A DNA stretch of 57,429 nucleotides, counting the filler, from Sphacelaria rigidula (Eukaryota), in NCBI GenBank assembly GCA_964200075.2. It is 8 parts of 8 records of this genome, joined end to end, with 100 filler letters (N's around TTAATTAATTAA, not from the genome) between each part and the next. Parts side by side here need not be neighbours in the genome. Positions count along the whole stretch, not along the records: positions 43,148 to 50,238 come from CAXNAA020016533.1; 7 more parts are not named here. The stretch is one strand, 5' to 3'. Below are positions 1,088 through 57,429 of the stretch, one piece after another. Positions within the stretch are counted from its first letter, which is position 1, and each line of letters starts with the position of its first letter. The position numbers and the translations under genes were made by a program. The notes under the pieces were generated by a model. The model saw only the letters and a list, made by a program, of their open reading frames with translations, was not told the origin of the DNA and searched no databases.

Positions 1088-1162
1088 TAAAGGAAAAAGG
1101 TTGGTAATATGTGCAACATAATCTTGTTTTCTTTCTTTTTTATATCCCTCCCCACCCTTCCC

Positions 1163-1238
1163 CATCTCGAAAGGGATGCGTGACCAATGGTCAAATCACG
1201 AAGGCAAACGACAAATGAATACCTTTCCCCCCCCCTCC
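1163..1238 (+). mobile_element. C-tract-associated short repeat, subfamily A
   Basis: CATCTCGAAAGGGATGCG...CAATGGTCAAA...AAATGAATAC followed by a C-tract; matches five other copies in this window. Confidence 0.75.
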
Positions 1239-3258: not shown

Positions 3259-3408
3259 CACACCCTAGATAATGACAAAATATAACATTGTCGACAAGTG
3301 TACTGCATACAGTATGGACTGCTGCGTTTACTGCAATATACAATAGATTCCATACTGCACGCAGTACACTTCTTGACAATGTAATCTGTTGTCATTATCC
3401 AGGGTGTG
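3259..3408. mobile_element. 150-bp foldback/MITE-like element
   Basis: Imperfect arms of about 60 bp: CACACCCTAGATAATGAC... / ...GTCATTATCCAGGGTGTG. Confidence 0.65.
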
Positions 3409-7037: not shown

Positions 7038-7092
7038 GGGGGGGGGGGTGTACTCATGATCACGCTTGCCATAGTCATCAGACCATTGACCT
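7038..7092 (-). mobile_element. C-tract-associated short repeat, subfamily B (cut by contig end)
   Basis: Minus strand reads AGGTCAATGGTCTGATGACTATGGC...ATGAGTACA then (C)n. Confidence 0.7.
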
Positions 7093-7460: not shown

Positions 7461-8598
7461 AATGAGTACGGTGAGGGGGCAAAGAACCTATGAAGATACG
7501 GAGTACTTTCCGCAAGGAGTGTGTTCAATACTTACCCATGCTATCGATATACATGACATGTTGGAATGATACAGCAACACACTGCAAGCTATTGGCGTGT
7601 TTTACATCGGAAACCTGGTTGCCTAGTTCACGCAATGAGAGGCGTGTTTGACAGCGTCATCGCCAACCGACGCCAACCGCATAGAGGCCGGGGGAGGGGG
7701 CGGGTGGGGAGAAAAAGAGAGTACGTCATAAAAGAAAGTCGAACGGGGTGGCCGCGGGGGTGCTAATGCAATGCTATAAGGTATTAAAGTGCAAGGTACA
7801 TACAGTACATAAACCGCGTGTACCGGGAGCGAGATGAGTTGACCGATGTGTTGACACTACAGACTCGTCACGAGGATAGAGGATGACATAGTACAATCAC
7901 AAATTGAAAATACAGGCATCACCTCAAGTCCTGGTACACTTTCATTGCACATGTACAATCGGCGCTAGGCTACAACACAGGAGGGGAAATACACACAAGG
8001 AGAGCAGGAGCAACAGCAGCAGCAGCAAATACCAACACTCTCCACGATCAACATTCCCAACTGAAATCTACGAGGTAACAGACACATATCATGATGTACA
8101 GGCATGGAGAAAAATATAACACATGACGGCAAGTAAGCCGAAGGGAGTGAAGGGGGGGGGAGGGGGGCACAAACAAAATTGTCTTTCCGGGCAGACAAGC
8201 TGCTGTTGTGCTGCGCATCTCCGTAGCTATTCACCGTCACACTTCGCCGAAATAAAGGAAGCGCTCTTGTAGGGAGCAGGTTTTGACTCAGTCATCTTTA
8301 GTGATATTCATCACTTGAATAAATTGATCTCTGAGTGCAGTAAAATTCACGGTGTCATTTGACACCGGTGGGTACCTTGAATACCACAACCTCGAATACT
8401 CCCTCTGGATGATGACTCTCCTGCGTTCATCTCCGGCACCATCACTGGTACGTTATATGTCATCCCCTATAATCCCGGAATATCAACTCAGCGTGATGGT
8501 GATTACGTTTGTACCAGATAGACCTCCCCTAACGAAAAATCAACCCGCAGATGGTGCATATGCTATACTGCGTGCACAACATGAACCTTGCAGGGTAC

Positions 8599-9909: not shown

Positions 9910-10081
9910 CCCTTGGCCGCGAGGGTAGTCCATCTGGATCATGCATACTTTTTTTTCAAAGAAAATTCGATGCCGACTCAACAGATGACGCGCGAGACGC
10001 AGGTCACGTGTTGAATCGGCATCAAATTCTCTTGAAAAAAAGTATGCATGATCCAGATGGACTATCCTCGCGGTATAAGGG
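9910..10081. mobile_element. Foldback derivative of the piggyBac-like MITE family
   Basis: About 80-bp inverted arms, both matching the right part of 15088-15185. Confidence 0.7.
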
Positions 10082-10534: not shown

Positions 10535-10593
10535 TGTACTCGTGATAATTCATGCATGTCATAGTCATGAGACCATTGACCTCGCATCCCGCA
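10535..10593 (-). mobile_element. C-tract-associated short repeat, subfamily B, 5'-truncated, with 12-bp TSD
   Basis: CGAGGACGGGGG direct repeat at 10523-10534 and 10594-10605. Confidence 0.8.
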
Positions 10594-12021: not shown

Positions 12022-12379
12022 TGTGCGTGTGTTGTCGTCCCATGTATTCTGGACGCCGGTCTACACCCTTCGGTATATGTAGACGCACCAGCCGGGGTCA
12101 CACAGGAGGAAGGTCAACAGAGGAGCTTTTTCTTTTTTCATTCGTTTTCGGTACCCTACCGTCCTCCTGCGGTGCTTGCCTTTCTTTTTATCGCGAAAAG
12201 GGTTCAGCAGTCCCTTTCCCTCGTCGACCGCTAAGTCGAATTTTGTGTATCCACGACATAGCCGCTTTCTACTGTTGGGCATGGTGTGAGAAAAAATCTG
12301 AGATCGCTGCGAGATTTGAACCCACGACCCAAACGTCAGAAGGGGTCGAAGATACCAACTGGGCCACCGGGGCGATCGG
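12022..12379 (-). mobile_element. tRNA-derived SINE, family 1
   Basis: Reverse-complement match to 22882-23255 and 31644-32005, with an A/B-box head. Confidence 0.8.
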
Positions 12380-12711
12380 ATATATGATAATAGTAATAAA
12401 TCAGAATAGTAGTCATATTACCAGCGGTGGTAGCAGTAGTAGTAGCAGCAGCAGCAGCAGTAGTGCGTGGTGGTGGTAGTAAGTGAATGGTGACAAAAAA
12501 TACGGTAAAAGAACCCCCCCCTGCACACATGAAAACGATACAAATACTGCACATCTCTAGTTACTCGATGCTTGTATGTACAACATGATAAACTAACATA
12601 ACAACTTTTTCTTAGAGATTGAAAGCAGAGCGCTGATTGAGAGTGGCTTTGATAATTCTCTGTAACTTGGCTAATTTTTCATCCCGTGTGTGCTCTTCTT
12701 TGCCTCCATCA

Positions 12712-18627: not shown

Positions 18628-18816
18628 GGCCCTGTCTTAGCACATTGGTTTTCGATCGAAATTGTGCGCTGGAAAGCAAAAATCTCGATCTGATAGGTCG
18701 TAATTTCAACCATCGTCGTTAATTTTGAAGATGGTTATAATCATGACCCATCAGATCAGGATTTTTGCTTGCCACCGCACGTTTTCGATCGAAAACTCAT
18801 GTGCTAAGGCAGACCC
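18628..18816. mobile_element. Tourist-like (PIF/Harbinger) MITE, 189 bp
   Basis: Nearly whole-length imperfect palindrome; flanks TTG/TTA. Confidence 0.75.
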
Positions 18817-21432: not shown

Positions 21433-21577
21433 AAATGTTTGGTGAAGATTGATACGACAAATGGGGGGGGGGTGNNNNNNNNNNNNNNNNNNNNNNNNNN
21501 NNNNNNNNNNNNNNNNNNTTAATTAATTAANNNNNNNNNNNNNNNNNNNNNNNNNNNNNNNNNNNNNNNNNNNNCTG

Positions 21578-21660
21578 GTCCGGCGAAAACCCGGCGTGCT
21601 CCGTCCCGGCTTTGTAGGGATGCGAGGTCAATGGTCTCATGATTATGAGTACACCCCCTC
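21578..21660 (+). mobile_element. C-tract-associated short repeat, subfamily B
   Basis: GAAAACCCGGCGTGCTCCGTCCCGGCTTTGTAGGGATGCGAGGTCAATGGTCTCATGA...GAGTACACCCCC. Confidence 0.75.
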
Positions 21661-22881
21661 TTCTAAAAACGTGCCCCCCAAATTCCCCTGAATGGGAATT
21701 GTTTTATACACCCCGAACGGCAACATAGATGTACCGTTGACAGGGGTACATGCAAAGGCTCATCACACAAGCCAACACAGCGGCAAAACTGAGAACGTGG
21801 TGCCCCCGCAAACCAAAAACACGAGTCGAGCCATAGCTGCTCATCACCTGAGCATGTTGTGCGTGATCTTGCTCGAATCTGTTCAGAATTCAGTGAGGAA
21901 CGATGACTTGTGTAAGACGCGCGCACTTTACACGCGCAAAAACGGTCATAGCGGAACGATTTCGGTTGTAATTTGAAACGCACGCAGACGCGATGTCTTC
22001 AATACAGAATGGATATAGGCCAAAAAGCGACTGCCGTGTGTAGAATAGCAACGGTTAGCGCTAGAACTAACGCGCGTGAGCGTGGATACCTGTGCGTGTT
22101 TCTCCGGAGCTCGGTGTGTAGGTGTTGTGTTCTCTTGTCGCATGTGAGTTGATCCCCCAGGTAGTCATGATCCAGTCGTGGTCATTATCCACATGATACA
22201 CGTACCCAACATAAAAACGACACATAAATGTCTGCACAAGCAGCAGTACATTATTGGACTAACGATCACTGTCAGGACCGACGCATTTTTTGACTCCCGT
22301 GCAGATCTGAGGTTCGATCTAGACAAAACAGCTCTTCCACCGGATCCGAACTTCGTGGGGCAATCCCCTTTCGAAAGGGGATTTTCGAAAAGGGGATAAT
22401 GCCCTTCGAGAAGAGCCCGCCTAATGGGTGAGAGCCCCCAAATCCTACCGCACCAGCTGCTTGTTGAATAACGCCTCACTTTTCAGTGATCATGTCGAAC
22501 TTATCGTTAGCATGAAATCGAACTGTTTTCGACACGATATCCAACACTTATCCTTGGCGCATGAAACGAAGTGTCGGCGAAGAGTAGAACGTGAATCCTT
22601 CGAAACGCTTCTTTCCAGATTGGAGGTCAGTTCCTCGTTTTCTGCAGTCTTGACTGAAACGACGTATCACGAATATCATGAAATTGCTGCAATTGAAACA
22701 ATGAGGCCCTCACTGTGGGAATAATATGCTGTCCAGTTAGTCATTCCGACAGCATCAAATCCAAATGTAGGTGCTGACTCATAAGCTGACACACACAAAT
22801 AACGCTATATTGCGGCGGTCAACACGATGAGGGAGATGCGTGCTATGTTGTACTTGGATTCCGGGGCGCGCTTCGGAGTAG

Positions 22882-23255
22882 CCAATCGCCCGGTGGCTCA
22901 GTTGGTAATCTTGAAACCTTCTGACGATTTGGTCGTGTGTTTGGATCTCGGTGCAGTCACACGATCTGGGATTTTTTCTCACACAAAGCCCAAGAGTGGG
23001 GGGCGACTTTGTCATGGGTACACAAATTCGACTTCACCGTCGACGAGGGAAAGGCACTGCTTAACCCCTCGCGCGACGAAAAGTAAGGCAAGCACCGCAG
23101 AAGGTGGATAACTACAGTAGAACAAAATAAAGACGAAAAAACTCCTGTGTTGGCCTTCCTCTTGTGTGACCCCAACTAATGCGCCCACATAGACCGAAAG
23201 GTGTAGACTAGCGTCCAGAATAGATGGGATGACAACTCACACACAGCACAGCACA
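22882..23255 (+). mobile_element. tRNA-derived SINE, family 1
   Basis: GGTGGCTCAGTTGGTA A-box head, shared body, CA-rich tail. Confidence 0.8.
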
Positions 23256-31318: not shown

Positions 31319-31389
31319 GGGGGAGGGGGGGGTACTCATTTGTTGCTTGCCTTAGTCGTTTGATCATTGACCACGGATCCCTTTCGAGA
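31319..31389 (-). mobile_element. C-tract-associated short repeat, subfamily A
   Basis: Reverse-complement match to 47258-47330. Confidence 0.8.
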
Positions 31390-31643: not shown

Positions 31644-32005
31644 CTGGTCGCCCCGGTGGCTCAGTTAGTAACCTCGAAACCTTCTGACGGTTGGGTCGTG
31701 GGTTCGAATTTCGGTGCAGTCACACGATCTGGGATTTTTTCCCACACCATGACCGACAGTGGAGAGCGACCATGTCGTGGGTACACAAAACGTTCGACTT
31801 CGGGGTCGACGAGGGAAAGGGACTGCTGAACCCCTCTCGCGATGAAAATTAAGGCAAGTACCGCAGAAGAAAGGTGGAGCACTAAAACAAAAGAAAAAAA
31901 AAGTTCCTGTGTTGGCCTTCCTCCTGTGTGACCCCGGCTGATGCACCCTTATATACCGAAAGGTCTAGACTAGCGTCCAGGATACATGAGATGACAACAC
32001 ACACA
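31644..32005 (+). mobile_element. tRNA-derived SINE, family 1 (best-preserved copy)
   Basis: A-box TGGCTCAGTTAG, B-box GGTTCGAATT, shared body, (CA)n tail. Confidence 0.85.
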
Positions 32006-32211
32006 AAGATGTTGAGCCAAGTGTTTCGTTCATTTCTGTTCGGTTTCTCCGATGGGATTCATTCTTGTATGCGGTATCTGAAGTGCAAGCCGTGGCGGTC
32101 GATTTGTTTGCGACCGATCGTCCGAGATGATTACACGAGGGGAAGCGGTGGTCTGTGTCGGCGCGGTCAACCATGGGGATTTGAGTCGCTCAAACGTGCT
32201 ATTGTACTAGC

Positions 32212-34365
32212 ATGCGGCAGGTGCACCTGCCGAGCATTGTTGATGCTGTGTTGTGGAATCACCGCCCTCTCCACCATTTCGTACTCTGTATTGCGCTTGT
32301 GCTGATTTCCCCCCCATTCCTCAGGTGGAGTTACATGCTAGATACCATGGTCCTTGGCAGCATTGCCATCGCCGACTCCTGGGCGATGGTTGCATCATCG
32401 TCGCGGGCACCGAATAGTGCTGTTGGCGCTCGGCTATGGCGACCGGGCGTATTCTCCACAAAAAGGCCAATTGTTACCTGCGGGCTGGCCCGCAAAGGCG
32501 CAAGGGGTGATCGTGAGGGCGATCGAGGTCGGGGTGGTCATGAGCGAGGAGGACCACGAGCAGGTGAGAGTGGAAATGGGCAACGGTCATGTGGCGATGG
32601 TCGTGGGGGCGCGAGGGGCCCGGGCATTGTTGGACAAGGTGGACAGCAAGGAGCCAGAAGGGGAAATGGCCAACGTCCACCTAGCGATATCCGAGCCGTT
32701 CAATCCTCCTACATGGGTCGAATAAAGCAAGCGGGGCTTCGGCGAAATTGGAGTATGGTAAAGCAAGTATTGGTAGAAGCTCTGGCTCGTAAAGACTCAC
32801 GATTGGTCGTAAATGTATACATATACGGTACGATCATAGACGTTGCTGCAAAGAGCGGCAATTGGAAACTAGCCATCAACATGCTGACGTACATGCGTCG
32901 GATAGGAGGTGTGGTTCCCAACGAGGTGTGCTACGGCTCGGCCATCAACGCTTGTGGCAATGGCAGGCAATGGGAGCGGGCCCTACTTCTTTTCAGGGAG
33001 ATGAAGGCTGCGGGTATCGTTCCTGGGGTTATAACGTACAACTCGGCCATCAAGGCATGTGGTGGCCAATGGGAACAAGCGCTGTTGCTTTTCAGCGAGA
33101 TGAAGGCCCAGGGTGTCAATCCTAATGTCAAAACCTACAGCTCTGACATAAAGGCGTGCGGGGACGGTGGACAATTGGATCAGGCTTTATCACTTTTGAG
33201 GGAGATGCAGACCGAGGGCATCACTCCCAATGTAATAACCTACAGCTCGGTCATCACGGCATGCGAAGACGGTCGGCGATGGGATCAAGTTTTGTCACTT
33301 TTGAAGGAAATGAAGACCAAGGGTATTAACCCGAATGTCATCACCTACAACGCGGCCATCAAGGCGTGCGGTGAACAGTGGGAGCAGGCTGTGTTGCTTT
33401 TGAGGGAGATGAAGACTGAGGGCATTGCCCCCAACGTCATAAGCTACAATTCAGCCATCAAGGTATGTGGGGATGGCGGAGAGTGGACGGAGGCTTGTTC
33501 GCTCTTGCGAGAGATGAAGGCCGAAGGTATCACCCCTGATGTCATAAGCTACAGTTCGGCCATCACGGCATGCAGTGAGCATTGGGAGCAAGCTTTATTA
33601 CTTTTGCGGGAGATGAAAGCCGAGGGCATCACCCCGAACGTCGTGACGTACAGCTCGGCCATTAAGGCATGCGGGGACAGCGGAAAGTTGGATCAAGCTT
33701 TGCTACTTTTGAGCGAGATGAAGGACGAGGGTATCGCCCCGAATGTCAAAACCTACAGCTCGACCATCAGGGCGTGCGGTGAGCAATGGGAACAGGCTGT
33801 GTTGCTTTTGAGTGAGCTGAAGACCGAGGGTATCGTCCCCAATGTCATAACCTACAATTCAGCCATCAAGACTTGCGGCGACGGCGGAGAGTGGAAGGAG
33901 GCTTGCTCACTTTTCCGGGAGATGAGGGCCGAGGGCATCGCTGCGAATGTCAAAATATACAGCTCGGTCATGAACGCGTGCTGGAACGGTGGGCAGTGGC
34001 AGGAGGCGTTGCTGCTCTTCAGGGAAATGAAGGCCGAGGGTATCGCTCCTAATGTCATGACCTACAACTCGGCCATCAAGGCATGCGGAGGCCGTGGAGA
34101 GTGGAGGCAGGCTTTGTCGTTTTTGAGCGAGATGAAGATCGAGGGTATTGCCCCTGATGTCATAACATACAGCTTAGCCATCACGGCGTGCGGAAATGGT
34201 GGAGAGTGGGAACGGGCTCTGTCGCTTTTGAGGGAAATGAAAACTGGAGGTATCGTCCCTGATGTCATAACATACAGCTTAGCCATCACGGCGTGCAGAA
34301 ATTGTGGAGAGTGGAGAAGCTTTGTCACTGCTAAGGGAGATGAAGACGGAGGGTATCGCCCCTGA
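32212..34365 (+). CDS. P-class pentatricopeptide repeat (PPR) protein, single exon; frameshift near 34318
   Basis: 14 complete tandem motifs of type NVITYNSAIKACGxGGQWEQALxLLREMKxEGIxP; repeats continue in another frame to 34483. Start codon uncertain (32212, 32335 or 32347). Confidence 0.93.
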   Translation: MRQVHLPSIVDAVLWNHRPLHHFVLCIALVLISPPFLRWSYMLDTMVLGSIAIADSWAMVASSSRAPNSAVGARLWRPGVFSTKRPIVTCGLARKGARGDREGDRGRGGHERGGPRAGESGNGQRSCGDGRGGARGPGIVGQGGQQGARRGNGQRPPSDIRAVQSSYMGRIKQAGLRRNWSMVKQVLVEALARKDSRLVVNVYIYGTIIDVAAKSGNWKLAINMLTYMRRIGGVVPNEVCYGSAINACGNGRQWERALLLFREMKAAGIVPGVITYNSAIKACGGQWEQALLLFSEMKAQGVNPNVKTYSSDIKACGDGGQLDQALSLLREMQTEGITPNVITYSSVITACEDGRRWDQVLSLLKEMKTKGINPNVITYNAAIKACGEQWEQAVLLLREMKTEGIAPNVISYNSAIKVCGDGGEWTEACSLLREMKAEGITPDVISYSSAITACSEHWEQALLLLREMKAEGITPNVVTYSSAIKACGDSGKLDQALLLLSEMKDEGIAPNVKTYSSTIRACGEQWEQAVLLLSELKTEGIVPNVITYNSAIKTCGDGGEWKEACSLFREMRAEGIAANVKIYSSVMNACWNGGQWQEALLLFREMKAEGIAPNVMTYNSAIKACGGRGEWRQALSFLSEMKIEGIAPDVITYSLAITACGNGGEWERALSLLREMKTGGIVPDVITYSLAITACRNCGEWRSFVTAKGDEDGGYRP

Positions 34366-36160
34366 TGTCATAACCTACAGCTTGGCCATCAAGACATGCA
34401 GGGACGGCGGACAGGGCGAGCACGCCTTGTCCTTTCTGGGGGAGATGCAAAACGAGGGTATCGCCCCTGACATGTCAACGTGACAGCTCTACCATCGTGG
34501 TACTCGGGGATTGTACACAACGGGACCCAAGCTAGATCTCTCTTGGGGGACATGAAAACGGAGGATGTCACACTGCGACCGCGTAGTCGGTTATTAATGC
34601 ACTGTATGCCGGAGGTGGGTGGGGGCGTGCATTCTTCAAAGAATCCCCCCTCGCGATCAGGGTTATTCGGTCAGATGTGAGAAATCGACGCACACTCTAC
34701 AACAGGAGGTGGGGTTTGGCCCAGGCTAAGCGTCTGCGTAATGGCTACCGGTAGTCGTTGCAGCGCGAGGGTCAAATACCAAGAGTGAGCGGATCCGAGA
34801 AAAAAAAAAAAAGTCAAGGGTCAGGCATGAGGAGTGAATGAGTCGGACAGGCGGACAGACAGGGACATCTTTATTTCCCGTCAGAGACTCCAGTAGATCA
34901 CTCCAGAATTGGTGACCCACTGCCTTCACCTCTAGTTAATCAGGTGTTGTCCCTGCATACATGATGTGCCGTGACATCCACCGGCGCTCCTCGAAGTTGA
35001 TAACGGTAATGCCCCGATCGACCCCTTCAAAGATTGCTGGTAACACCCAGAAAACGCACGTGAACGCTAAGGTCTCACAAACCACAGTATGAACAGTACC
35101 AACTGAGATGGCAGCAGTGATGGTTGCCACAGATTCTCGCCTGTTGCGGAATATCGGGGATGCTGAATTACCAAATATTCTGTTTTGTTGCGGTGAGTCG
35201 GGGCCTTGACCTCAAGTTAGTGTTACCCAATCGTCTGGCGTGCATTATCGCTATTTTTTTAGGCATTTCCAGCCAGTCTTGTTTAGAACACATTTTGTTT
35301 TTTAGAACACGCGCGGAACATTGCGAACCCTTTCGCCAAATTGAATGTCGAGCGTTTGATTGAGGCTGGGAGCCCAAAGAATGGGAAATCCCATTTCATT
35401 TATCCACTGATGCTTCTTGGGGAATATTTCGCTAAGCCAGTCGAGGAGCTACTCGAATGAAAGCTCTTAGCCGTGGGAAGAATCCGATGTGTATTTTTGC
35501 TGCATTGACGTTGTCAATCAGCAGATATCTGGGACTCCAGATTCCCAGCAATGGTCGACGAATGCTTAATGCCTTTACGGCCAAATTTCCCTCCAGGCCT
35601 CATACGCTTTCTGCAGTAGCTTGTCACTGATGCCTCTGGTACCCCTGAGTAAGATATCGACGTATAGGTGTGAGCACACGTTTTTTTCAGCAAGAACGAA
35701 AACACCGTCGAGTCATAGCGAGTCATAGAACTCATTGTCAATCAAATGCTGTACTAGACACTAAATCTGGCGAGAAGGTTTTTGACGATGCATTCCTCCT
35801 ATAACAATAAACTGTGCGAATTGAGGTTTAACTCCGAGATGAGGTTCAAGTCTAAANNNNNNNNNNNNNNNNNNNNNNNNNNNNNNNNNNNNNNNNNNNN
35901 TTAATTAATTAANNNNNNNNNNNNNNNNNNNNNNNNNNNNNNNNNNNNNNNNNNNNGAAGCCTACTGATCATCTTGCATGCGGATAACAGCTTACAATGA
36001 CTTGCTTTATTGTTTGGTATTGCCACTTCCAGAGACAGCCACGGCTTATACACCGCCTCATGGGTGTCTCGCCATGTAAAAACTACGTAGTGCGATCGTC
36101 CCCATTGTGCGGAGTTGAGGTTCTCCCACGCCCCCGCGCATTCGGGGTGGGTGGGTGGGT

Positions 36161-36232
36161 GGGGGGGGGGCGTACTCACTGGTTGCTCGCCTTAGTCGTT
36201 TGACATTGACCACGCATCCCTTTCGAGACGGA
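36161..36232 (-). mobile_element. C-tract-associated short repeat, subfamily A
   Basis: Reverse-complement match to 47258-47330, with G-tracts on both sides. Confidence 0.8.
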
Positions 36233-36415
36233 GCACCCATTCGGGGGGGGGGGGGGGGGGTCCTATATGGCCATGACCCTTTTTTTGGGCTGATACCTTG
36301 GGGAACGTTGGAGTATGTGGTGTCTGCCTTAGTAACGTTATCCCAGGTCTTGTACACACGTAGTCGCTGCGAAAATGACGACAATAAGTAAAACGCGAAT
36401 TGAAGTAGTCATCAC

Positions 36416-37635: not shown

Positions 37636-38783
37636 AGCTCCCTATAGCTCGAGCTAGCTCTTTTTGAGCGTAGGTCCCTAGTGAGCTGATAGAGCTACGT
37701 GAGCTGCGCATGTTTTTCCTGGGGTGAGCTATGAGAGCTATATGAGCTACGCATGTTTACCGTACATGAGCTATCAACCTGTAGCTCATCAGCTCGTATT
37801 AGCCCTGAGTGAGCCATGGGAGCTGTATGAGCTACGCACATTTGCGATAGGTGAGCCACCAACCCGTAGCTCATCAGCTCAGATTCGTCCTGGGTGAGCT
37901 ATGAGAGCTGCTACGCATGTTTGCCCCGGATGAGCTATGAGAGATGCATGAGCTACACATGTTTGCCCTGGATGAGCTATGAGAGCTACGATTGCTAATC
38001 CCTTTGACCGCGAGGGTAGGAGGTCTCTGAATCGGCATCATTCACACCCAAAAAATCAAGTGAATTATGCTGATTTATCAGATCGTCAACCCTCGCGGTC
38101 AAAGGGCTAACCCCTTGACAGAGAGCATATGTCATCTTTTGAATCAGCTCCAATACTTAGAAAAACGTATGTATAACCAGATGGGCTAGTACCCTCGCGG
38201 CAAACCGATCAAAAGAAATGAATCGGTCGATTATTGTAGACACTGAATATGAATATTTTTTTCAATCATCCGACCAAGCTAACGGGGATATGTTGGTTTA
38301 CTTTCTTCCTATCGCGAAGAGTGAGGCAAAACATCACAACCTCATGATATGTGGCACCATCCGTTCGAACAAGAATGTTGCATCATAAGCGACATGGGGT
38401 GGGTCAGCGACGAGCTAGGGTCAGCGACGAGCTAGGGGCATATGACGTGAATGAACCACGACCATGTGTCCCTGGGGTGAGCTACCGGGCGTAGCTCGTC
38501 CGCTCATGTTTTCCCCGGATGAGCTGTGAGAGCTACATGAGCTGCACATGTTTGCCCTGGCTGAGCTATCAACCCGTAGCTCATCAGCTCGTATTAGCCC
38601 TGAGTGAGCTATGGGAGCTGTATGAGCTACGCACGTTTGCGATAAGTGAGCCACCAAGCCGTAGCTCATCAGCTCAGATTCGTCCTGGGTGAGCTATGAC
38701 AGCTGCATGAGCTACACATGTTTGTCCTGGGTGAGCTAAGCTCAGCGCATGCTTACCTCGTGTTGAGCTATCGGACGCAGCTC
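37636..38783. repeat. AGCT-rich complex tandem repeat, interrupted by MITEs
   Basis: Dozens of GAGCT/TAGCTC motifs; block of about 37745-37910 recurs at about 38540-38705. Confidence 0.8.
38000..38106. mobile_element. piggyBac-like MITE (family of 15088-15185), followed by a degenerate second copy to about 38203
   Basis: Perfect 18-bp TIR CCCTTTGACCGCGAGGGT / ACCCTCGCGGTCAAAGGG; flanks CTAAT/CTAA. Confidence 0.75.
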
Positions 38784-39460: not shown

Positions 39461-40894
39461 CTATGCAGAATAAAAGAACAAAAGAAAGATCCAAATTAAT
39501 GTAGGCAACATGTGTAGACCTCAAGTGTTCCATATGTTCACCTCTTGTGCTCCATGTGGTGAAACGCGACTGGATTCGTGACGTATCAGTCATGATGCAA
39601 GACATCCAGTCCAGTGCATCATGTGCGGCTGACACACGGAAAACAAGCACACATACTTCAGCTCTGGCCAGTCCCAGACACCCTCCGTACGCATCGAAAA
39701 AAACAGCTCTTAGAACATATTGTGTGGGATGTAGAACCTCGAATCCGCGCAGAGGCGATGATCGGAACACGTGGTTTGTTGAAATGGTGAGACACCCATG
39801 AGGTAGTGGCTGTATCTGAAGGTGGCGACAAAAGAAAATAAAGCAACTCTTTGTAGGCTGTCACCCATGTGCAAGATAATAGAGAGTTTCGGAAACACAG
39901 GTCAGAACTCAGCGATGAGGAAAAACTCAGGGACCATCAAGAAAGTTGGGATTGAAAGCCAGGATATGACGAATTCCCCCAGGTAAACCCCGAAAAATGA
40001 ACCTCGAGAACAGATATGCGCAGCAACTCAGGATAAATTTCAAAATTTTAAAATAAACCCTGAGTTGGTGAACACCCCAAAGGGTTGATGCCACACTCAG
40101 GGGTATGAAACGGAACTCGACACCCTGCCCCATAACGACCAAGCTTACGGAACACAGCCGTACCGTGCGTAGGACAAATATCGTAAGTGAGTCGATGGCG
40201 AATGCCATGAACGCCCGCGACAGCGCTGGTGATGAAATCTCGTTCACGAGGGTGAACCAAGACTACGACGAGCATTTGGAAGCGAACGGAGGAGTCGAGA
40301 CACCAGTCGATCTGGCTTATGATGATGCGAAAGGGCGGGAGTCGGCCGCTCAAGCAGCTGCTACGAGGACTTGACAAAACGGCCACCCAACGTGAAGCTT
40401 GCGTTCGCTCGCGCAGGTACACCACCGTTGTGTGGACATTTTGTCGAGATTCTCGTAGCGTCTGCATGAGTGGCCCACTTGAGCCCTTCCACGTCATCTT
40501 TAGCCAGGTCGACAGGTATCTCTGTTCCCCTGTTCGCCTCCACGCAGCTAGGATTACTGCATATAGTGAACCTTCATCGGGAACTACTGTACTTTCTCAT
40601 AGTATGCAAACGTACACACACGGGCATGCTCACACTTTTACTTTAGACAGTAGTACAGTACACACCACTTCACTTACTACAGGAAGCACACAAAACTGTC
40701 TTTAGACAGCACAGTCAGTGCAACAACAGTACTACAACGGTACAAATCTCAGGTGTCTCAACTCAATAGTGCTGTACGACACACCGACATGTGCAGGACT
40801 TCTGAACGACAAGCGGGCGCCGAGGTGCACTGCCCTTGTACCCAACGCTGTGTAGTGTGTCGGGTTCGTATTCGGAGGCTGTGTTGACGATAAT

Positions 40895-41110
40895 GTGTGT
40901 GAGTTGTTCCACTTATTCTGGACGCCGGTCTACACCTCGCGGTATACGTGGGCGCACCAGCCGGGGTCACACAGGAGGAGGGCCAACACAGTAATTTCTT
41001 CATTTTTTGTTTGTTTTCAGTACTCCACCTTTCTTTTGCGGTGCTTGCCTGTATATTTTATCGCGAGAGGGGTTCATCAGTCCTCTTCTCTCGTCGATCG
41101 TTAAGTCGAA
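40895..41110 (-). mobile_element. SINE family 1, 3' portion
   Basis: CTGGACGCCGGTCTACACC...CCAGCCGGGGTCACACAGGAGGA matches 12050-12240. Confidence 0.75.
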
Positions 41111-41767
41111 TATACTGCTGTCGCGTATTCAACGGTACGGGGACAGCATAAACAACTAAAGTCATGCTAGGATAGGACGGGGGGTATTGTGGGCCGTTGC
41201 TTCCACTAAGTTCAACTTTGAATCGATTTTAGGAGCAACGATCTTCAGAACGGGCGTGTTTCCAAAAAATAACGCTCATTCATACTGCTTGACGCCATTT
41301 TACCCAAATACACGCGCACGGCGAGTGTGTCGGATAGTCCGAAACACTATTGTCTTTTTCCCCTGGAATCAAACACGCAACCTATGGCAGCACGGCTCTT
41401 TATGTACTCTCCTGCGCTGCACGGGTAACACCGCATGGGTGGGCGCAGAATACAAGCGCAGAAAAGCACGCCGCGACTTGTACCTTTTGAACTCATGACA
41501 CCGACCACGTGACATTCGGAACAGAAAATACAAAACCCTGAAAAGTTCCCCACGGTTCACACCCACGTCGTGAAAAAAATAAAAATAAACCTGGGGTTTG
41601 AGCGTAAACAAGTCGTTTCTGACTGTTATCCCTGAGTTCAGATTTTTTTCCCGAAACTCTTCAATCACTAGACTTTGGGTCAAACAATCTCAAGAGGACG
41701 CAGGTTACTCTTCATGCGACTCGCCGACCATCATGGTGCTCTACGCTTGGCGATTGGTTGTAAGCCT

Positions 41768-41880
41768 GGTGCGGTGAAAACCCGGCGTGCTCAGCCCCGG
41801 CTTTGTAGGGAGGCGAGGGCGGTGTTCTCACGACTACCGCATGCAATTTCATGATTAGAGACCCCCCGCCCCCCCCCCCC
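41768..41880 (+). mobile_element. C-tract-associated short repeat, subfamily B
   Basis: GAAAACCCGGCGTGCTC...CGGCTTTGTAGGGA...CATGATTAGAGA then (C)n. Confidence 0.7.
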
Positions 41881-43942: not shown

Positions 43943-44210
43943 GAGTAATGCTACGGTAGGGGCGCACAAGTAGTTTCTGAGGTTGGAATTGTTATTTGGA
44001 GCCCTTTAATGTCGTCCAAAACACGACTTAAGAAACATGTGAGAATACGCCACGATTACTGTCCCAATGTGCCATGATAGCGATATCTCGAATGAATTTG
44101 CAAACGGAGAGGCCCTGACCCATGTTCTTGTGCGTCTAGAATCGTGAGGAGCCCCCGAACCAGACGAGAGTTTGCCCAGAAGAAGTCCACCCGTAAACGT
44201 AGCATTGCTC
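43943..44210. mobile_element. 268-bp MITE with GAG...CTC ends and 4-bp TSD (Sola-like)
   Basis: CCAC-GAGTAATGCTACG...CGTAGCATTGCTC-CCAC. Confidence 0.7.
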
Positions 44211-45069: not shown

Positions 45070-45328
45070 GAGCAATGTTACGGTAGGGGTTCACTTTTGC
45101 GCAAAATGTTGTCTGATGCAGGGGCTCCAAACGGCTTTAGATGCACAAGAATATGGGCCAGGGCATCCCCGTTTGCAAATTCATTCGGGATATTCCTAGC
45201 ACATTGGAATAATAATCTTGGCGTACACTCACATATTTCATAAGTCGTGTTTTTGGATGAGATGAAGGGCTCCCAACAGTCCTACCCTCAGAAAATATTT
45301 GGGCACCCTTAGTATCGTAGCATCACAC
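45070..45328. mobile_element. Second copy of the Sola-like MITE, inverted relative to 43943-44210
   Basis: Reverse-complement similarity over about 200 bp; flanks TGCA/TTCA. Confidence 0.7.
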
Positions 45329-46615
45329 TTCAACCCTCTCCCGCTTACCCAGCTTCCGAAGACGGGCTTGTCAGAGAATACAGAGAGACGTTACACCCTT
45401 CCCTGAATTTCCGGACGAGCAAAACACCGTGCTACGCTTCAATGTTTTCAGAAGGAAACACTCCAGGAGTCGACAGTAGTGTACTTCACTGTGTGACAGG
45501 AAAACGCTTGCCCCCAGTTGACGACGTTGACGGGCTCCGCAAAAGGTTGCACTGCGACGACATCGTGAGGTTTTGTGCAGTTACTGTACTGACTTCAGGA
45601 GGAAATAATTTAAAGGTTTACGATATGCCGCGACGTGCGATTGATTCCCCCCCCCCAAAAAAACGATATGCCAGGATATAAAGGACAAGAACCGCGAGGG
45701 CGTTTCTTTCGATCTAATTTTTGGCCACGTTCGAGACAGTCAACACGCCGAGGCCCTCCGACAGGTGAGGGAAGCACAGCGCCTTCACCAGTCTTCAGCT
45801 GGAGCTTGTACGACGCACAAATTTTTCAAGCATGCAGTAGAGTATCCGGCGGTTGTTACAAGGTATCGGTACAGTACGATGTCAACACCATCAGCAGCAG
45901 TCGCGAGCACGGGTAACCGAAGGCCCGGTGTGCAACGTGCAGGCGACCTTGGATGGTGTGAACAAGAATACAGAAACCCTTTTTCACGATTGTCCCCCGG
46001 ATCGAAGCGCTCTCGGAAAAATCCGCATTATGTTTTCGAGAATCCCCCAAAACAGTTCTCGAAAACTGATCTATGCTTCACCTGAGCATTTTTTGCTCCC
46101 AACCTTGTTAGGCTTCGGGCACCACACCGACTCGTTAACCTTCGAATACGCAACAGATGGCCACCCTCCCGAAAAAACAGCCGTTAGAATGTCAAATTAT
46201 GCAGCAGGAGACGGTAAGATCAGTGAGTGGTTAGACCAGCATCCGCAAAATACAAGAGCAGGCGGTTCATGTGTTGAGCGGGCGTGCCATCGGTCATGGT
46301 AGGAGCAGACATAGCGCGGCACAACGTGCATTGTTTGTGTTGATGGAGGGAGGGCACCAGCAGGCAGCAGAATAGAAGAGAGCACAGCACGCCTGAAACG
46401 AAGCAAACAGGTGAGGCGAGCAGGATTATAAGGCTCATTTTCAAGATTTTTCCCCAGATCAAAACGTAACGGTCTGATTTACTTCGCGGTAAGATAATCT
46501 GATGCCATCGTCACGGGCACCACGTGGTGGTTACAGGGGATTTCACCACTAGACCGAGTAGTCAGCGCTGACGTATACTTCTTTGTACCCCGACCTTGCT
46601 ACATCATCTCTACCG

Positions 46616-47083
46616 TCATGGGCGAAGTCTCGATAGTTCTTCCATGCAGGCCGATGGGAGAGGGGTGTAATCATGATCTTGCATCCCGTAGTCAAAAGAC
46701 CATTGACCTCGTATCTCTACAAAGCCGGGACGGAGCACGCCGGGTTTTCGCCGGGCCAAGCTCGATGGGGGAACGCAAACCAAAGCTGGGCTCTCTCCTT
46801 TTACGTCTTCTGCCAACGAACAAAAATATTCGTCCTCTGCAAGCGCCTCCTCGATCATCAGGTTTGTGCTGCCTCCCGCCTCCGGTTCGGCTGCTGCGGT
46901 GATCAGGTCGGTCATCTCGAATTTTTCCTCAGTCATTCCAGACAGCACTGTTTCCGCTTCCGCTCTTGCCAGCAAGAGATCCTCTGCGGGCGCCAGCAAG
47001 AATTCGTCTACCTCGTCTATCGCGGTTTGTAACCCTTCCCGATCAACTGCCGCTCTTGTCGCACCGCGCGTGCGACCCGCCAT
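46616..47083 (-). CDS. Hypothetical acidic ORF (MAGRTRGATRAA...), possibly transposon-derived
   Basis: Open, protein-like frame from CAAATGGCG; no recognisable domain; carries an in-frame repeat insertion. Confidence 0.35.
   Translation of the reverse strand: MAGRTRGATRAAVDREGLQTAIDEVDEFLLAPAEDLLLARAEAETVLSGMTEEKFEMTDLITAAAEPEAGGSTNLMIEEALAEDEYFCSLAEDVKGESPALVCVPPSSLARRKPGVLRPGFVEIRGQWSFDYGMQDHDYTPLPSACMEELSRLRP
46659..46762 (-). mobile_element. C-tract-associated short repeat, subfamily B, with 7-bp TSD
   Basis: CGATGGG direct repeat at 46652-46658 and 46763-46769. Confidence 0.8.
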
Positions 47084-47257: not shown

Positions 47258-47330
47258 TCTCGAAAGGGATGCGTGGTCAATGGTCAAACGACTAAGGCAA
47301 GCAACAAATGAGTACGCCCCCCCCTCCCCC
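47258..47330 (+). mobile_element. C-tract-associated short repeat, subfamily A (next to 10-N gap 47248-47257)
   Basis: TCTCGAAAGGGATGCGTGGTCAATGGTCAAACGACTAAGGCAAGCAACAAATGAGTACG then (C)n. Confidence 0.85.
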
Positions 47331-47667
47331 GTCGTTGTGCTTGGGGGTGTCGACGGTTGTCGGCGGCAAGGATGACGGGGTGGTTGACGGTAAGGGTGCC
47401 TGTGAGTGTGGTGTCGGCGGTGTGGGTGACTACTCTGTCGGCGTTGTTAGCGTTTCAGGAGGCGATGGCGTAGGCGACGCTGCTGATGATGGTGTTGCCG
47501 GCGCTGCTGTTGTCGACGTGGATGGTGGTATCGTGGGCGCCACCGACGACGGCGGTATAGGGGGCGCCGAGCCCCGATCATCGATGGGATCTTAAACGGG
47601 GTCTGTGAAATCGTCCCGCCTTCCCCGCCTCCGCAAGTAGACGGTGAAGTCACACATCCCCCCCCCC

Positions 47668-47726
47668 GTCTCGAAAGGGATGCGTGGTTAATGGTCAAAC
47701 GACGAAAGCAAGCAACAAATGAGTCC
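47668..47726 (+). mobile_element. C-tract-associated short repeat, subfamily A
   Basis: Preceded by (C)n; abuts the Gypsy LTR. Confidence 0.8.
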
Positions 47727-50238
47727 TCTAGCTCCTGCCAGACGATCTGGACAAGAGGGTTATTCATTGAGGGACTTCTCCAGAACCCGCTGGCCTCAAG
47801 CTCGATAAAACTTCTCGTAGAGCTTGCGTTCACGAATGAAGCAACAGCAGCCCACTGGCTACACATCAAAGGCTACACGGTGGTGGTCATCATCCACAGT
47901 GTACAATGTCCCATAGTCATCATCCAGTATCCTACGTGATAAGCGCAACGACTTGGCACCATTTTGGGCTACAGCACCCTCAAAGCGAGTTCAAGACAGA
48001 CGAACGAGCTTGACAACCAACAAAAACCAACAAGCCGAATTTTCATGCGCCAAATCACAAAGAAATACCATACTCCAACGCTTATTTACTGGTCAACGCC
48101 CGAGTCAACCGCAGTTTACGCAGTTCCTTGACAACAAATTCAGGCGCCGGAGAATGATTTTTCCGAAGAGACTCCCCCGGACGTTCTTCGGAATCGAAGC
48201 CATCCCAATCGACCAAAACTATGACATTTCCATCATCGTCCTCTGCGATGTGCACCAAAGCATTCATCCGACACTCCCCCTGAGCATACGAATGCTGAAA
48301 AACATCTTTGAGTCCCGCAGTGATGTGTAACTGTGAGTCAGCATAAAAACGTAAACGAGCGACATGAGTCGAGTGGACGGCGCCAGAAACAATATTCTGC
48401 ACCGAATACACGTGAGCGTGATCGGCTCCGATCACTCGCCACGGACCTGTTCATGTGGATATCAGTTTTGGCGTCCCACCTTGCCTACGAGCACGAGCAT
48501 ACAAAACAAAATCACCAACCGCAAATTTGGGCAACACAGCTTGGCCCTGAGCAAGCTTACGTTTAGTTTCTCGGGACACCGCAACAGCTGCTTGCACTTC
48601 TTTGCAAAACCTCACTTGCTCTTCAACGACGTTCTTAACCTTGTCACGCAACGCGTCAGCATTCATGACATCGATTTCCACTCGCCGTCAGTGGCAGAAA
48701 CCAACGCTGAAAACGCGGCACGCGGCGCCCGTCCAAACATCACACAGTATGGAGTGTTGCGGTATCGTTCACGAAAAGACGTATTCAGCGCCCACTGAGC
48801 TGCCGGTAGAACATTAACCCAATCCGACACCGGTCGTCTCTGTTCTGATAAAATAGACCTCAGCGCACGAATAACCTCCTTCACCATACGTTCACATGTA
48901 CCGTTTGACCATGGGGTGTATGCAACAGCAAGTTGTTTCACCTGGAGCGCGTCGCTCAGATGCGCTATCACTCGATTTTTGAAATGCGAAGGTGTATCGC
49001 TCACCCACACCCGTGGCACCCCCAAAGCCTTACACCACTGCAACAAATATTGAGCCATGACCTCGGCTACACAAGCTCCGGTCGGCTCCAGACAAACGAA
49101 ATCAGATAAATCATCCATTATGACTAGTAGGTATCGAAAACCATCGTCCTCAGGTAAACCATAATCACCTTCAGGCCCGCTACTCCCGACGTAGAGAAAG
49201 TCAAAGTGAACCACCTCACCTGGCGCAGTACCAGGCACAGTATCGCCAAACGGACGAGGTACAATTTCACCAGCACAAGTGTCTACACAGTGTAAACACT
49301 GGCGAACAAACTCGCGAACCTGAGAATCCATGTGAGGCCACACACAGTATTCTTTCAGACGAAACAAAGTCGGCGTCACACCACGGTGCCCAGCCGATCT
49401 CATGTGAGCGCACACCATCAGGCGATTTTGCAGAGTCTTATCCTCTGGCGGAATCCACAAAACATCACGACTGCCAACATGCACCCGAAACACACCATCA
49501 TCAGCCAAGGTAGCTTGACCGAAGTTCGTGGGAGAAGAAGTAACACCGTCGCCGACTGTTTTCCGCTGCGCATTGCGAATGACATCTAACGAGGGCAGCG
49601 AATCATCAGCATCATACGGGGTGTACACAGCAACGGAACGAATAGGTACGGTAGGGACCTGTACCCAACGAGACATCAAATCTCCCCAACCATTTTGTTT
49701 CTCCCGGGATGTGTTCAATTGCGTATCGGTACTGACCTAGCACACCTTCCCAATTCTCCAGTCTCTGTGCCATGGCTTTTGTGACCGAGGTGACACACTC
49801 CTCAGGGTTGAAAATGTACTTCAGATTCCGATGATCAGTGAAGATACGAACACCACACCAGAGCAAATACTCGAGTCTACGGAATGTGTTTACAATCGCG
49901 AAACCTTCCTCATTCACTGTCGCCCACCGCAACTGTGAACCCTTGAAACTACCACTCAGAAACCCCAAAGGTTCGTGTGACATATTTTCCAACGCCATGC
50001 CACTATTAAACTCTGTGACAGGCACCTGTGTCAGGAAAGACCCCCAGTGAAGGTCACTTGCATCGGGGAACATTAACACAACGCACCCAGGACGAGGATG
50101 ATACAGTGGGGCCGCTTGCGCCACCAAATCCTGCGCTGCACGCCATGCCCGCACCCGATCCTCCGTCCAGGCGTCCTCCGGAATGACACGATTTCGCGCC
50201 ACCCGCTTGGTCCTACGCGACGCCCCTGCCATCAGTTG
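47727..50238 (-). mobile_element. Degenerate Ty3/Gypsy LTR retrotransposon with chromodomain: RNase H, integrase, chromodomain, 3' LTR (47727-47973)
   Basis: FPDAS...FLSGSF...IFTDHRNL (RNase H); HMRSAGHRG...CLHC zinc finger; HFDF, VSD and SNGTCER (DDE); LVDWDGFDSEE (chromodomain). Several frameshifts; truncated by the spacer. Confidence 0.93.
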
Positions 50239-50338: not shown

Positions 50339-50506
50339 CAGGGCATCCCCGTTTGCAGATCTATTCGGGATATCCCCAGCACATTGGAATAGTAATCCCG
50401 GCGTACTCTCGCATATTTTTATGAAGTCGTGTTCTGGATGAGATAAAGGGATCCTAACAAATCTAACCTCAGAAAATATTTGTGTACGCCTACCGTAGCA
50501 TCACTC
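50339..50506. mobile_element. Third (partial) copy of the Sola-like MITE
   Basis: Matches 45158-45328 and ends CGTAGCATCACTC. Confidence 0.7.
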
Positions 50507-51075
50507 TCTTATTCCATTTTGGTTTTGCTCTTTTTTTGTTGTTTTGGGTCGGCCATCTATCTCTGTATGTGCTTTGTTTTTATTTACTTTTTAATTTCAT
50601 TTTTTTTAACGTATGAGTCTACTTTATCGTTCTGTTCGACTTTTTTTTTTCTGTTCCTTCTTTTCTTGAGCGAGTCTTTCAGTTTTGCTTTTCTTGGGTA
50701 CGTCTACTATGCGACCACGGCTTGACCCCTGGGGAGTCAGTGAAACTGCGACGATAAATCAAATCAATCGATCAATCACATACGCGATGGTTTGCAACGC
50801 ACATTTGGAGGGTTCGGGTGAACACCGTTCAAACCCTGAGTCCATACTTGCGTTTAGCAGTGGCAACACGTTCACTCGTAATGGAAAATAGTTGACAACG
50901 CAAAATAACGCTTCCGTGCCTCCACCTGCCACACGAAGCAACGTCGAAGTAGAGTGACCCTATGTAATGGGTTCCCTTCCAGATTCGCCCTTCTCGCACG
51001 TGTGTCGGTTGCCTGAATAGATGTCATTGATCAACTGAATGGTGTATGCCATCTTTCATCCTGTCGAAGCATTAC

Positions 51076-52887: not shown

Positions 52888-52888
52888 C

Positions 52889-53184
52889 TGTAGCCTCTGC
52901 CAGACGATCTGGACAAGAGGGCTGTCCACGAGAGACTCCTCCAGTAGCACTGGCCTCGTGCTCGACAAGTCCTTTCTTCACACTTGTTATTATCACGGAG
53001 TGATACAGAAACAGACCGCACCATGAGCCAGACAGCGAGGGGCCGCACAGATCAGGGCCATCAATCCAGAATCCCCTGTCCCCTGCCTTTGCTTCAATCA
53101 CCCATGCGATTATCCTGAAACCTACTGCTTGGTTTTCGGCTACTGCACCCTCAAAGCGAGTTCAAGACAAACGATTCGGCTACA
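52889..53184 (-). mobile_element. Internally deleted Gypsy derivative: 10 nt of 5' LTR, pre-LTR segment, full 3' LTR
   Basis: TGTAGCC / GGCTACA termini; LTR homologous to 47727-47973 and 56039-56295. Confidence 0.8.
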
Positions 53185-54280: not shown

Positions 54281-54556
54281 ACCAAATCTTCGAAGTATGC
54301 TCCCATTTCTTCACTTGCTGATAGCTATTGACAACTACTACACGCCATACAAATTTGGACTTCGATAACCGAAATATCGGGGTCCTATGTGAAAAACCAA
54401 TTTCGGGGGATTTCAGGTGTCCGATCGGACCCCAAATTGGTTTTTCACATAGGACCCCGATATTTCGGTTATCGAAGTCCAAATTTGTATGGCGTGTAGT
54501 CGTTTTCAATAGCTATCAGCAAGTGAAGAAATGGGAGCATACTTCGAAGGTTTGGT
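54281..54556. repeat. Near-perfect 276-bp palindrome
   Basis: Arms of about 122 bp with 3 mismatches by eye; loop of about 32 nt. Confidence 0.95.
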
Positions 54557-55626: not shown

Positions 55627-56038
55627 TATCACTCCTGGCGGGGTCTTCACTTTTTCCGTTGTATCACCTTCGTGTCGAGGAGAACTCCGTGTGCAACCAT
55701 CATCCGCGCCTTACCAGCTGTTGCCCCACTGCGTTCTCTGTTCATATCCGGTTGCTCTTCCTCAACCGAGCAGACCTGCTCATGGTCATTGTTGCGCGAA
55801 GTTGATACTTTGGGCGTCATCATTTTTAAACGAGTGGCGGATACTTTGTAACAGAAGGTGCATTTGCAGGGCATTAGCGCCCGTAGGATCAAACGCTATC
55901 GCATCCCAAACACACCGACTGCGACATCATTTCAAACAGCATGTGATTAGGTCGACTTCACTTCGAATGTGCACCAGGCAGACGACATGCACTCAATACT
56001 CCTTTTCCACGCCCGGCTGCGACTGTCACGCAGAGACC

Positions 56039-56625
56039 TATTGCCTCTGCCAGACGATCTGGACAAGATAACTATTTACGAGGGACTCCTCCAGTAGCAC
56101 TGGCCTCGTGCTCGACAAGTCCTTTCTTCTCACTTGCTATTATCGCGGAGTGATCTTCAACAGACCACGTCACAAGCCAGCAGCAAGGGGCCACACAGAT
56201 AAGGGTAATCAATCCAGGATCCCCTACCCCCTGCGACTGCTCCAATCGTGCATGCGATTATACTGAAACCTACGGCGTGGTATCATTTGGCTACAGCACC
56301 CCTAAGCGAGTTCAAGACGGACGAACGAGCTTGACAACCAACACAAACCAAGGCGAAATCGCATTCGCTAGATCACAAAGAAATACCATACTCCGACGCT
56401 AAGTTACTGGTCAGCGCCCGAGTCAACCGCGTTTTACGCAGTTCCTTCAAAACAAATTCAGGCGCAGAAGAATCTTGCGAAGAGACTCTCACGTATGTTC
56501 TTCAGCACCGAACCCTTCCCAATCGACTAAAACAATGACATCACCATTGTGATCCTCAGCGACGTGCACCAAAGCATTCATTCGACATTCACCTTGAGCA
56601 TACGAATGCTGAAATACATATTTTA
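56039..56625 (-). mobile_element. Gypsy 3' end: chromodomain fragment plus LTR (56039-56295)
   Basis: VFQHSYAQGECRMNALVHVAED...VLVDWEGFGAEEHT, homologous to 48082-48310. Confidence 0.85.
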
Positions 56626-57386
56626 CCACTACTTCGGAGACATGTACACACAAGGACGGTCGGGCTATGACCTCCGATGAATTGCTTGATGCTGTGAAGC
56701 AGCACGCCGGGTATACTACAACCGGTGGAAAGCATGACGCTACGCGGGCTGCAGCAGACCTCTCCATCACATGGCTTCGGTGAAAAAGGTCTCGCGCAAA
56801 AACTACACTCCTACCCAATCACCCAAAGCAAAAAGCCCAGGAAACAGATTGCTGCTCATCTATTTCGACCTCACTAGAGTATGACCACTTTCACATCGAA
56901 ATCACGAATACCGTTGCCTGCTACAGTAGCAATAGTCCGACGTTGCGCTTCCCAGTGCTCCACTCTCACAAGTTCGAGCTGAAGGGTGGAGGCTCGACCC
57001 CAAAGTCAAAGGTGTAAGCTAAGGTTTTTCTTATAACGCGAACCTCTGACTTACTGCCAACGTGGAACCTCAGCATTTGACTAGACATTTCGATCCGACA
57101 CGTGAATTCCCCTCTTGTATTTTAGGTTGAACTTAGAGGTCTTATGAGTTGTCGTACGGTGGAGGGGGGGCGAGGGGGTATTTTTGTGGCATTTTGTTTC
57201 ATCAAATTCCACTTCATATTGTTGAAAGCAGCAACGGTTGTTCGAACGAGCTTGTTACCGACGAGCATCGCTTATTCATACTACTTGACACTGTTTTTTC
57301 CCTGATAAAAACGCACCGCGAGTGTGCTAGGTCGTCAGACACATATATGAGCCTTCTTTTTCGTAAAATCACCCCCCCCCCCCTCC

Positions 57387-57429
57387 GTCTCGAAAGGGAT
57401 GCGTGGTCAATGGTCAAATGACTAAGGCA
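57387..57429 (+). mobile_element. C-tract-associated short repeat, subfamily A (cut by window end)
   Basis: (C)n-GTCTCGAAAGGGATGCGTGGTCAATGGTCAAATGACTAAGGCA. Confidence 0.8.

Follow-up and report, generated by a model that had tools for sequence, protein, structure and literature searches.

The closest described counterparts of the repeats analysed here come from another brown alga. In the entries tabulated for Ectocarpus, RTEX-1_Ec32 is given as 'single EN-RT ORF; (C)n 3′', with a length of 5.5-5.9 kb and a C-rich target-site duplication (TSD); RTEX-N1_Ec32 measures 604-607 bp, is characterised by '60 bp 3′ end 83%' relative to RTEX-1/RTEX-2, has an unknown head, may be tandem and again has a C-rich TSD; and RTEX-N2_Ec32 is non-autonomous and 188 bp long (PMC12477816). 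Since this anatomy is tabulated there, a C-tailed LINE together with its partner is already described. An RTEX-1 LINE is also reported in the brown alga Saccharina japonica, where the likeness is that of an RTEX LINE in a brown alga, at the level of description rather than of compared sequences, and the passage that names it gives no terminal structure (PMC4421812). A second point of comparison is provided by stringent LINE/SINE pairs with a 3′ stem-loop, as set out for ZfL2-1/ZfL2-2 and for plant RTE/TS SINE (PMC4176376, PMC3747384).

The window, the whole stretch of 57,429 nucleotides that was analysed, consists of eight contigs of a fragmented brown-algal assembly (G000; 244 Mb in 27,214 contigs) joined by N44-TTAATTAATTAA-N44 spacers. 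A first-pass annotation had claimed eleven copies of a tiny structured repeat, in two subfamilies A and B, in seven of the eight contigs, and every one was found where it had been placed (Table 1). Genome-wide, an 18-mer of subfamily A has 2,736 exact matches in G000 and a subfamily B pattern has 2,237, both lower bounds, with zero matches to either reversed control. The junction survey covered the window and 140 loci, which together gave 218 distinct copies, 12 of them with no scorable 3′ end. In all probability the A copies are 5′-truncated insertions of an RTE-X-type LINE of brown algae, and the B copies those of the ~570-nt non-autonomous element that accompanies it. The significance of this is mainly one of annotation, in that repeats flanked by C-tracts, which number in the thousands in this brown-algal genome, become a described LINE and its partner.

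Table 1. Features of the window, with sampled loci where given (positions count along the whole window)
Feature	Position or loci	Strand	Remarks
Subfamily A copy (starting finding)	47258..47316	+	LINE 3′ end; tblastn to P0005 residues 1344-1360, 94%
C-tract at 3′ junction of 47258 copy	47317..47330	+	read from sequence
P2a/P2 stem-loop GTC..TGGTC-AAAC-GACTA..GGC	47277..47298	+	part of putative recognition module, within coding sequence
Subfamily A copy, ~61 nt, 5′ C-run	47666..47724	+	without 3′ C-tract
Subfamily A copy, diverged, both flanks C-rich	1162..1222	+	
Subfamily A copy, 58 nt, 3′ C-tract	31332..31389	-	
Subfamily A copy, ~67 nt, extends to GTGCTC closing stem, C-runs on either flank	36171..36237	-	
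Subfamily A copy, contig end cuts 3′ end	57383..57429	+	
Subfamily B 3′ end, contig end cuts 5′ side	7050..7092	-	
Subfamily B 3′ end, ~55 nt, 12-bp TSD CCCCCGTCCTCG	10536..10590	-	
Subfamily B 3′ end, deletion close to its end; contig start at 5′ side	21575..21652	+	
Subfamily B copy, ~195 nt, diverged	41663..41857	+	41768 copy of the first-pass annotation
Subfamily B copy, ~97 nt, 7-bp TSD CCCATCG	46667..46762	-	
Internal ORF fragment of the LINE, post-RT region, contig start	7193..7463	-	55% to P0005 residues 1078-1168, E 2.5e-25
B-element body fragment, directly behind C-tract of 36171 A copy	35957..36129	-	
B-element body fragment	39716..39880	+	
B 5′ region fragment	7608..7687	-	
Head-to-tail stacks	L012, L015, L035, L044, L045, L053, L060, L122		
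B copies behind the 92-99-nt cluster	L032, L041, L053, L072, L117, L131, L138; window 46667-46762		sampled copies only

Subfamily A comprises the ~18 terminal codons, the stop codon and the 4-5 nt beyond it of a ~5.6-kb LINE with a single ORF for an APE endonuclease and a reverse transcriptase (RT). The starting copy reads SRKGCVVNGQTTKASNK at 47258-47308, followed by the stop codon TGA at 47309-47311 and then GTACG, its 5′ side being cut by an N gap. The first-pass annotation had supposed an unidentified RT and proposed looking for long copies with a 5′ extension coding for RT or endonuclease; A copies do continue 5′ into an EN-RT ORF, aligning over up to 4.1 kb, and the supposed 'core' is the C-terminus encoded by that same element. 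Endonuclease (PF14529, E 3e-7) and RT (PF00078, E 8e-12) domains were found in natural frames, with a Pfam match in 3 of the 7 fragments scanned, so that an APE endonuclease plus RT lie in the element's own ORF as in APE-type LINEs. P0005, an intact database relative of 1360 aa with EN and RT, covers L079, L080 and L061 in tiles from one end to the other; the window copies correspond to its last 17-19 residues, which identifies the core as the ORF end. By arithmetic from alignments, L061 spans about 5.6 kb once an interruption and a duplication are subtracted. About eight 63-nt monomers in tandem make up its 5′ region (L061:422-936), which is a candidate for an internal promoter. The named homologs of the ORF are Ectocarpus proteins, and two of these, P0010 and P0012, share its terminal peptide motif. 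Measured against unnamed Ectocarpus proteins, identity is 37-72%, a proxy for comparison with the RTEX consensus. The 3′ end is fixed, 5′ truncation varies (109 A copies measure 22-2162 nt) and TSDs differ in length, which completes the hallmarks of a non-LTR element. Four of the eleven window ends are assembly edges (the N gap at 47258 and the contig ends at 7092, 21575 and 57429) and so say nothing about truncation.

Long copies are old. Over 1,297 alignments among 50 loci the best pairwise identity is 87.6% and the median 82%, so no young long copy is present among them, and every one of the best 30 ORF matches carries stops (77 of 12,082 candidates scored). Eukaryote-type LINE copies L168-L198 sit in records titled bacterial or archaeal MAGs, and one such record has 59 matches to its LINE 3′ motif, a pattern suggestive of host sequence placed in a prokaryotic bin. 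A search of a viral contig collection found no relative.

Tandem and nested copies are common here and Penelope-like Chlamys elements, which are 5′-truncated, tandem and microsatellite-biased, are present in Ectocarpus, so the repeats could in principle be pseudo-LTR ends of such elements. We consider this extremely improbable: the 3′ end of Ectocarpus Chlamys-1 is given as (A)n in its tabulated entry (PMC12477816), and a Chlamys/Naiad assignment was rejected because the endonuclease is of the APE type (PF14529) and not GIY-YIG, and because, among solved structures, the proteins nearest to the LINE protein are L1 ORF2p (the nearest) and R2.

The view that this is not a described family does not stand, in that the anatomy matches Ectocarpus RTEX-1/2_Ec32 and RTEX-N1_Ec32 as tabulated, a match of descriptions and not of aligned consensus sequences (PMC12477816). 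Subfamily A has the anatomy of RTEX-1/2_Ec32: a single recognised ORF, for EN and RT, a length of ~5.6 against 5.5-5.9 kb, a (C)n 3′ end, a C-rich TSD, thousands of copies and, in Ectocarpus proteins, the same terminal peptide. It differs in belonging to another brown-algal genome, in which the long copies have decayed, and in the overlap of ORF and tail, the structure and the 65-nt peak seen here, which are not among the features described for RTEX-1/2_Ec32 in those entries. The RTE-X label itself is provisional, being taken from this source (PMC12477816) and from anatomy, and not from alignment or an RT tree.

Subfamily B corresponds to the 3′ end of a non-autonomous element of ~570 nt, the partner of the LINE. 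Five full-length copies measure 563-572 nt, and what they have in common with the LINE is confined to the last ~66-72 nt, from GTGCTC on; the head opens with a ~50-nt duplicate of B's own 3′ region. B thereby resembles RTEX-N1_Ec32 (about 600 bp, a ~60-70-nt LINE-shared 3′ end only, an unrecognised head, tandem copies and a C-rich TSD), from which, compared by tabulated description, it differs by a length gap of ~35 nt and by the duplicated head. The earlier remark that there are no visible Pol III boxes agrees with our searches, which found no tRNA (ARAGORN, 9 loci) and no Rfam match (6 loci), nor an exact B box in four full-length B copies, three of which have internal T-runs of 5-8; on these grounds B fails a strict SINE test. 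The 5′ ends of B form a loose cluster at 92-99 nt, which coincides with the motif that recurs at the 5′ end of B itself. In another assembly, a more distant LINE (52% protein identity) has a B-like element immediately within its C-tract (L146:2709-2805), and B-type partners are therefore not confined to G000. Hammerhead- and HDV-like cores, looked for by eye, were rejected; the B head has a possible 7-bp HDV-type P1, the other HDV features being missing.

The 3′ end of the core had been said to run into a C-tract rather than poly(A), and this holds for 149 of 206 scorable copies, with CCCC starting at most 4 nt from the 3′ end in 91/114 A and 58/92 B copies (random control 1.8%) and AAAA in none; it fails for the 47668 copy, which has no 3′ C-tract. 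Both TSDs reported earlier, of 12 bp at the 10535 copy and 7 bp at the 46659 copy, are present. When at least 10 nt with at least 4 non-C bases were demanded, 12 of 166 copies had a TSD, against 0.65 in flank swaps, which leaves 154 of 166 without a clean one; under a looser criterion, the short class described below gave 17/43 against 0.33 in the control (79 of 87 seed copies kept). Tabulation of TSDs and 3′ junctions, as suggested in the first-pass annotation, thus shows both to be enriched over controls, and its proposal of target-primed retroposition into C-tracts by an element with a structured 3′ end is supported by TSDs, C-run junctions and the covariation described below. A C-run lies directly 5′ of the insertion in 40 of 43 short copies, TSD starts lie in this run, and the 3′ run is often not longer than the 5′ one. 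From the C-tract junctions and the TSDs that start in C-runs, we conclude that the tract is largely target DNA, and the presumed poly(C) 'tail' of the element is largely duplicated target; an added tail need not be invoked, and may nonetheless occur. Head-to-tail stacks of A and B copies are frequent, with every copy lying in the C-tract of the one before it, so insertions seed new targets.

These junctions and TSDs are genuine, and no Rfam or tRNA match was obtained; they could also be read as those of a new SINE-like system with a C tail, one that has no kinship with described families, is moved by an RT yet to be identified and receives an added poly(C) tail. We regard it as very unlikely, given that the RT is encoded in cis with the core as its coding end, that the same anatomy appears in the Ectocarpus entries (PMC12477816), and that C-runs pre-exist 5′ of nearly all short copies.

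The tail of the LINE is an RNA module that overlaps the end of the ORF and, by analogy with stringent LINEs, is the predicted recognition site of the ORF protein. Between the G000 majority and the intact relative L141, the third positions of the final 22 codons agree at 22/22 sites, against 270/365 (74%) upstream; between L142 and L141 the figures are 22/22 and 391/619. Relatives fetched by protein search keep hairpin P1, the CG(U/A)GGUCAA linker, hairpin P2 and the final UGAG. This holds down to about 40% protein identity, and also in relatives that have (ATT)n-type tails. In a set of nine sequences (eight families plus one window copy), P2 with its extension P2a is 94% paired with 9 two-sided changes, above 500/500 shuffles and all slides, the structure having been drawn from these same nine sequences; covariation favours the stems, with that dependence. 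The pairs of P1 vary consistently, among G.U, G-C and A-U and between U-A and C-G, and the swap of G.U to A-U noted earlier in the 1163 copy is present. P1 itself (CGTCTC-GAAA-GGGATG, at 47667-47682 in the 47668 copy) had been seen as an addition of subfamily A; it is there, but B also has a stem, CGTCCC/GGGATG, with a larger loop. A further closing stem, GTGCTC/GAGTAC, absent from the first-pass annotation, has 6 bp in A and B and can close the module; in relatives it has 3-5 bp in four and is broken in two (L144 and L145). In A only, an upstream GGAGTA (L141:3700-3716) can pair with the closing stem's TGCTCC, and the loop of this alternative hairpin ends at the −65 hotspot discussed below.

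A purely protein-level explanation would make the stems incidental to conservation of the C-terminal peptide. The core is coding, and fold stability exceeded shuffles in none of 8 sequences (z −1.16 to +0.74), the minimum-energy fold showing the closing stem in one of the eight (L062) and not in L141. Within G000, moreover, the module stems decay like other columns, and the 4-nt loop, said earlier to vary freely, lies within A (20/176) barely above the stem (60/704) and other columns (94/1056). As decay among these copies is neutral, being equal at all codon positions, their covariation is uninformative. Incidental stems are nonetheless unlikely, because synonymous positions are frozen, non-coding B keeps the module, and the pairs covary across families that have diverged widely in protein. 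A and B thus share a covarying 3′ structure of the stringent type, read with the derivation of the structure and the folding z-scores in mind. As in the stringent pairs, to the extent that they are described in the sources cited above, autonomous and non-autonomous elements share a 3′ tail with conserved stems, variable loops and covariation; in contrast to those pairs, the module lies within the last codons and not in the 3′ UTR, comprises two hairpins and a possible closing stem, and is shared with a partner without a Pol III head. No Rfam match was found for the 11 window copies at E up to 1. For the study of retrotransposons, the interest is that a predicted RNA recognition signal overlaps a protein's last ~20 codons, with a predicted fold that persists in distant relatives whose tails are of another type.

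L1 primes from a T-run on poly(A), and the C/G-run priming proposed here would be its counterpart. By analogy with stringent LINEs, the ORF protein would bind the ~66-nt structured 3′ module encoded by the last codons, and the APE endonuclease would nick a (C)n/(G)n run on its G-rich strand, leaving a G-ended primer that could anneal to the Cs immediately downstream of the module. Those Cs would come from read-through into the copy's own TSD, which would make a poly(C) polymerase dispensable. Reverse transcription would mostly halt early and leave 5′-truncated copies, and the 65-66-nt class would belong to a more recent A lineage, with RNA that either was trimmed back to the closing stem of the module or served as template no further than that stem. 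Because this natural class maps the minimal cis-signal to the nucleotide, the model of recognition and G-run priming is directly testable.

The 5′ ends of A pile up at −65/−66, the edge of the closing stem. Patterns reaching −64, −65, −66 and −67 have exact genome counts of 3,976, 3,587, 2,254 and 1,595 (retention 0.90, 0.63 and 0.71), from which a model estimates that about 40% (35-43%) of A copies reaching −65 stop there. At the equivalent step B goes from 2,243 to 2,091 (retention 0.93), with no such peak although the module is the same, and of 31 copies in a distant family no more than one has its end near the module edge (30 of 59 matches fetched). The description of the family as tiny is borne out in part, by this sharp genome-wide class of A, a form shorter than every family in the Ectocarpus entries (PMC12477816). 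Short copies have no common 5′ flank beyond C-runs, and their TSDs adjoin the 5′ end. They are less diverged, with a median of 1 substitution per 47 nt against 4 in long copies (p 8e-5; 42 short copies compared with 22 long ones, after removal of one long copy), and are enriched for allele T at −27 (18/55 copies of 69 nt or less against 0/17 over 150 nt; p 0.004). Loose C-rich ends at L079:5129 occur in 42 and 40 contigs of two sequencing runs of one study.

With its fixed 5′ end, lack of common upstream sequence, abutting TSDs, lower divergence, allele skew and same-base loose ends in two runs, the 65-66-nt form could be a headless retroposon in its own right, the bare recognition module of the LINE existing beside the LINE and B; excised from read-through RNA at the base of the closing stem, it would reach C-runs by copying in trans, still at work after the long elements had decayed. 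If true, this would show what minimal RNA signal a homopolymer-targeting LINE needs in its cargo, a signal written within the last codons of an ORF and conserved in distant relatives with other tails. We hold this to be possible but doubtful. An assembly of 27,214 contigs may lose young long repeats and keep short ones, so that the age gap, and with it the skew, may be partly an artefact; the 70-150-nt class also has perfect copies (3/9); and L209, which is 87 nt long, carries allele T with 0 substitutions and includes LINE sequence, shows that a young template longer than 65 nt existed. Allele T is, besides, the state of the intact LINE relatives L141 and L168, the two runs may come from the same organism or sample, and no promoter or processing signal came to light. 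A truncation hotspot of a younger LINE lineage is the reading that we favour, by a modest preference. In the open literature that was searched, as distinct from subscription journals, Repbase and Dfam, we found no paper on the structure of RTE-X 3′ ends, on truncation hotspots or on headless elements made of a LINE tail; the ORF-overlapping module, the closing stem and the −65 stop are all absent from the texts so covered.

Several other features of the window were noted. A 726-aa open frame at 32185-34365 (+) contains ~35-aa tandem repeats, and we take it to be a candidate PPR-like protein. Long inverted repeats of 150-276 nt (1714-2245, 3259-3408, 9917-10073, 18632-18812 and 54281-54556) are probably MITE-like; the one at 1714-2245 is duplicated, and in Rfam the inverted repeats gave only sub-threshold miRNA-precursor scores. 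Dispersed repeats include a ~360-nt family, 76-82% identical, in four contigs (12022-12382, 22879-23246, 31648-32008 and 40889-41111), another that starts at the 3′ end of the 47668 copy in place of a C-tract (47721-48309, with 52888-53174 and 56033-56623), and a further one at 43943-44210, 45070-45329 and 50339-50507. An array of 42/85-nt tandem units occupies 37681-38739.
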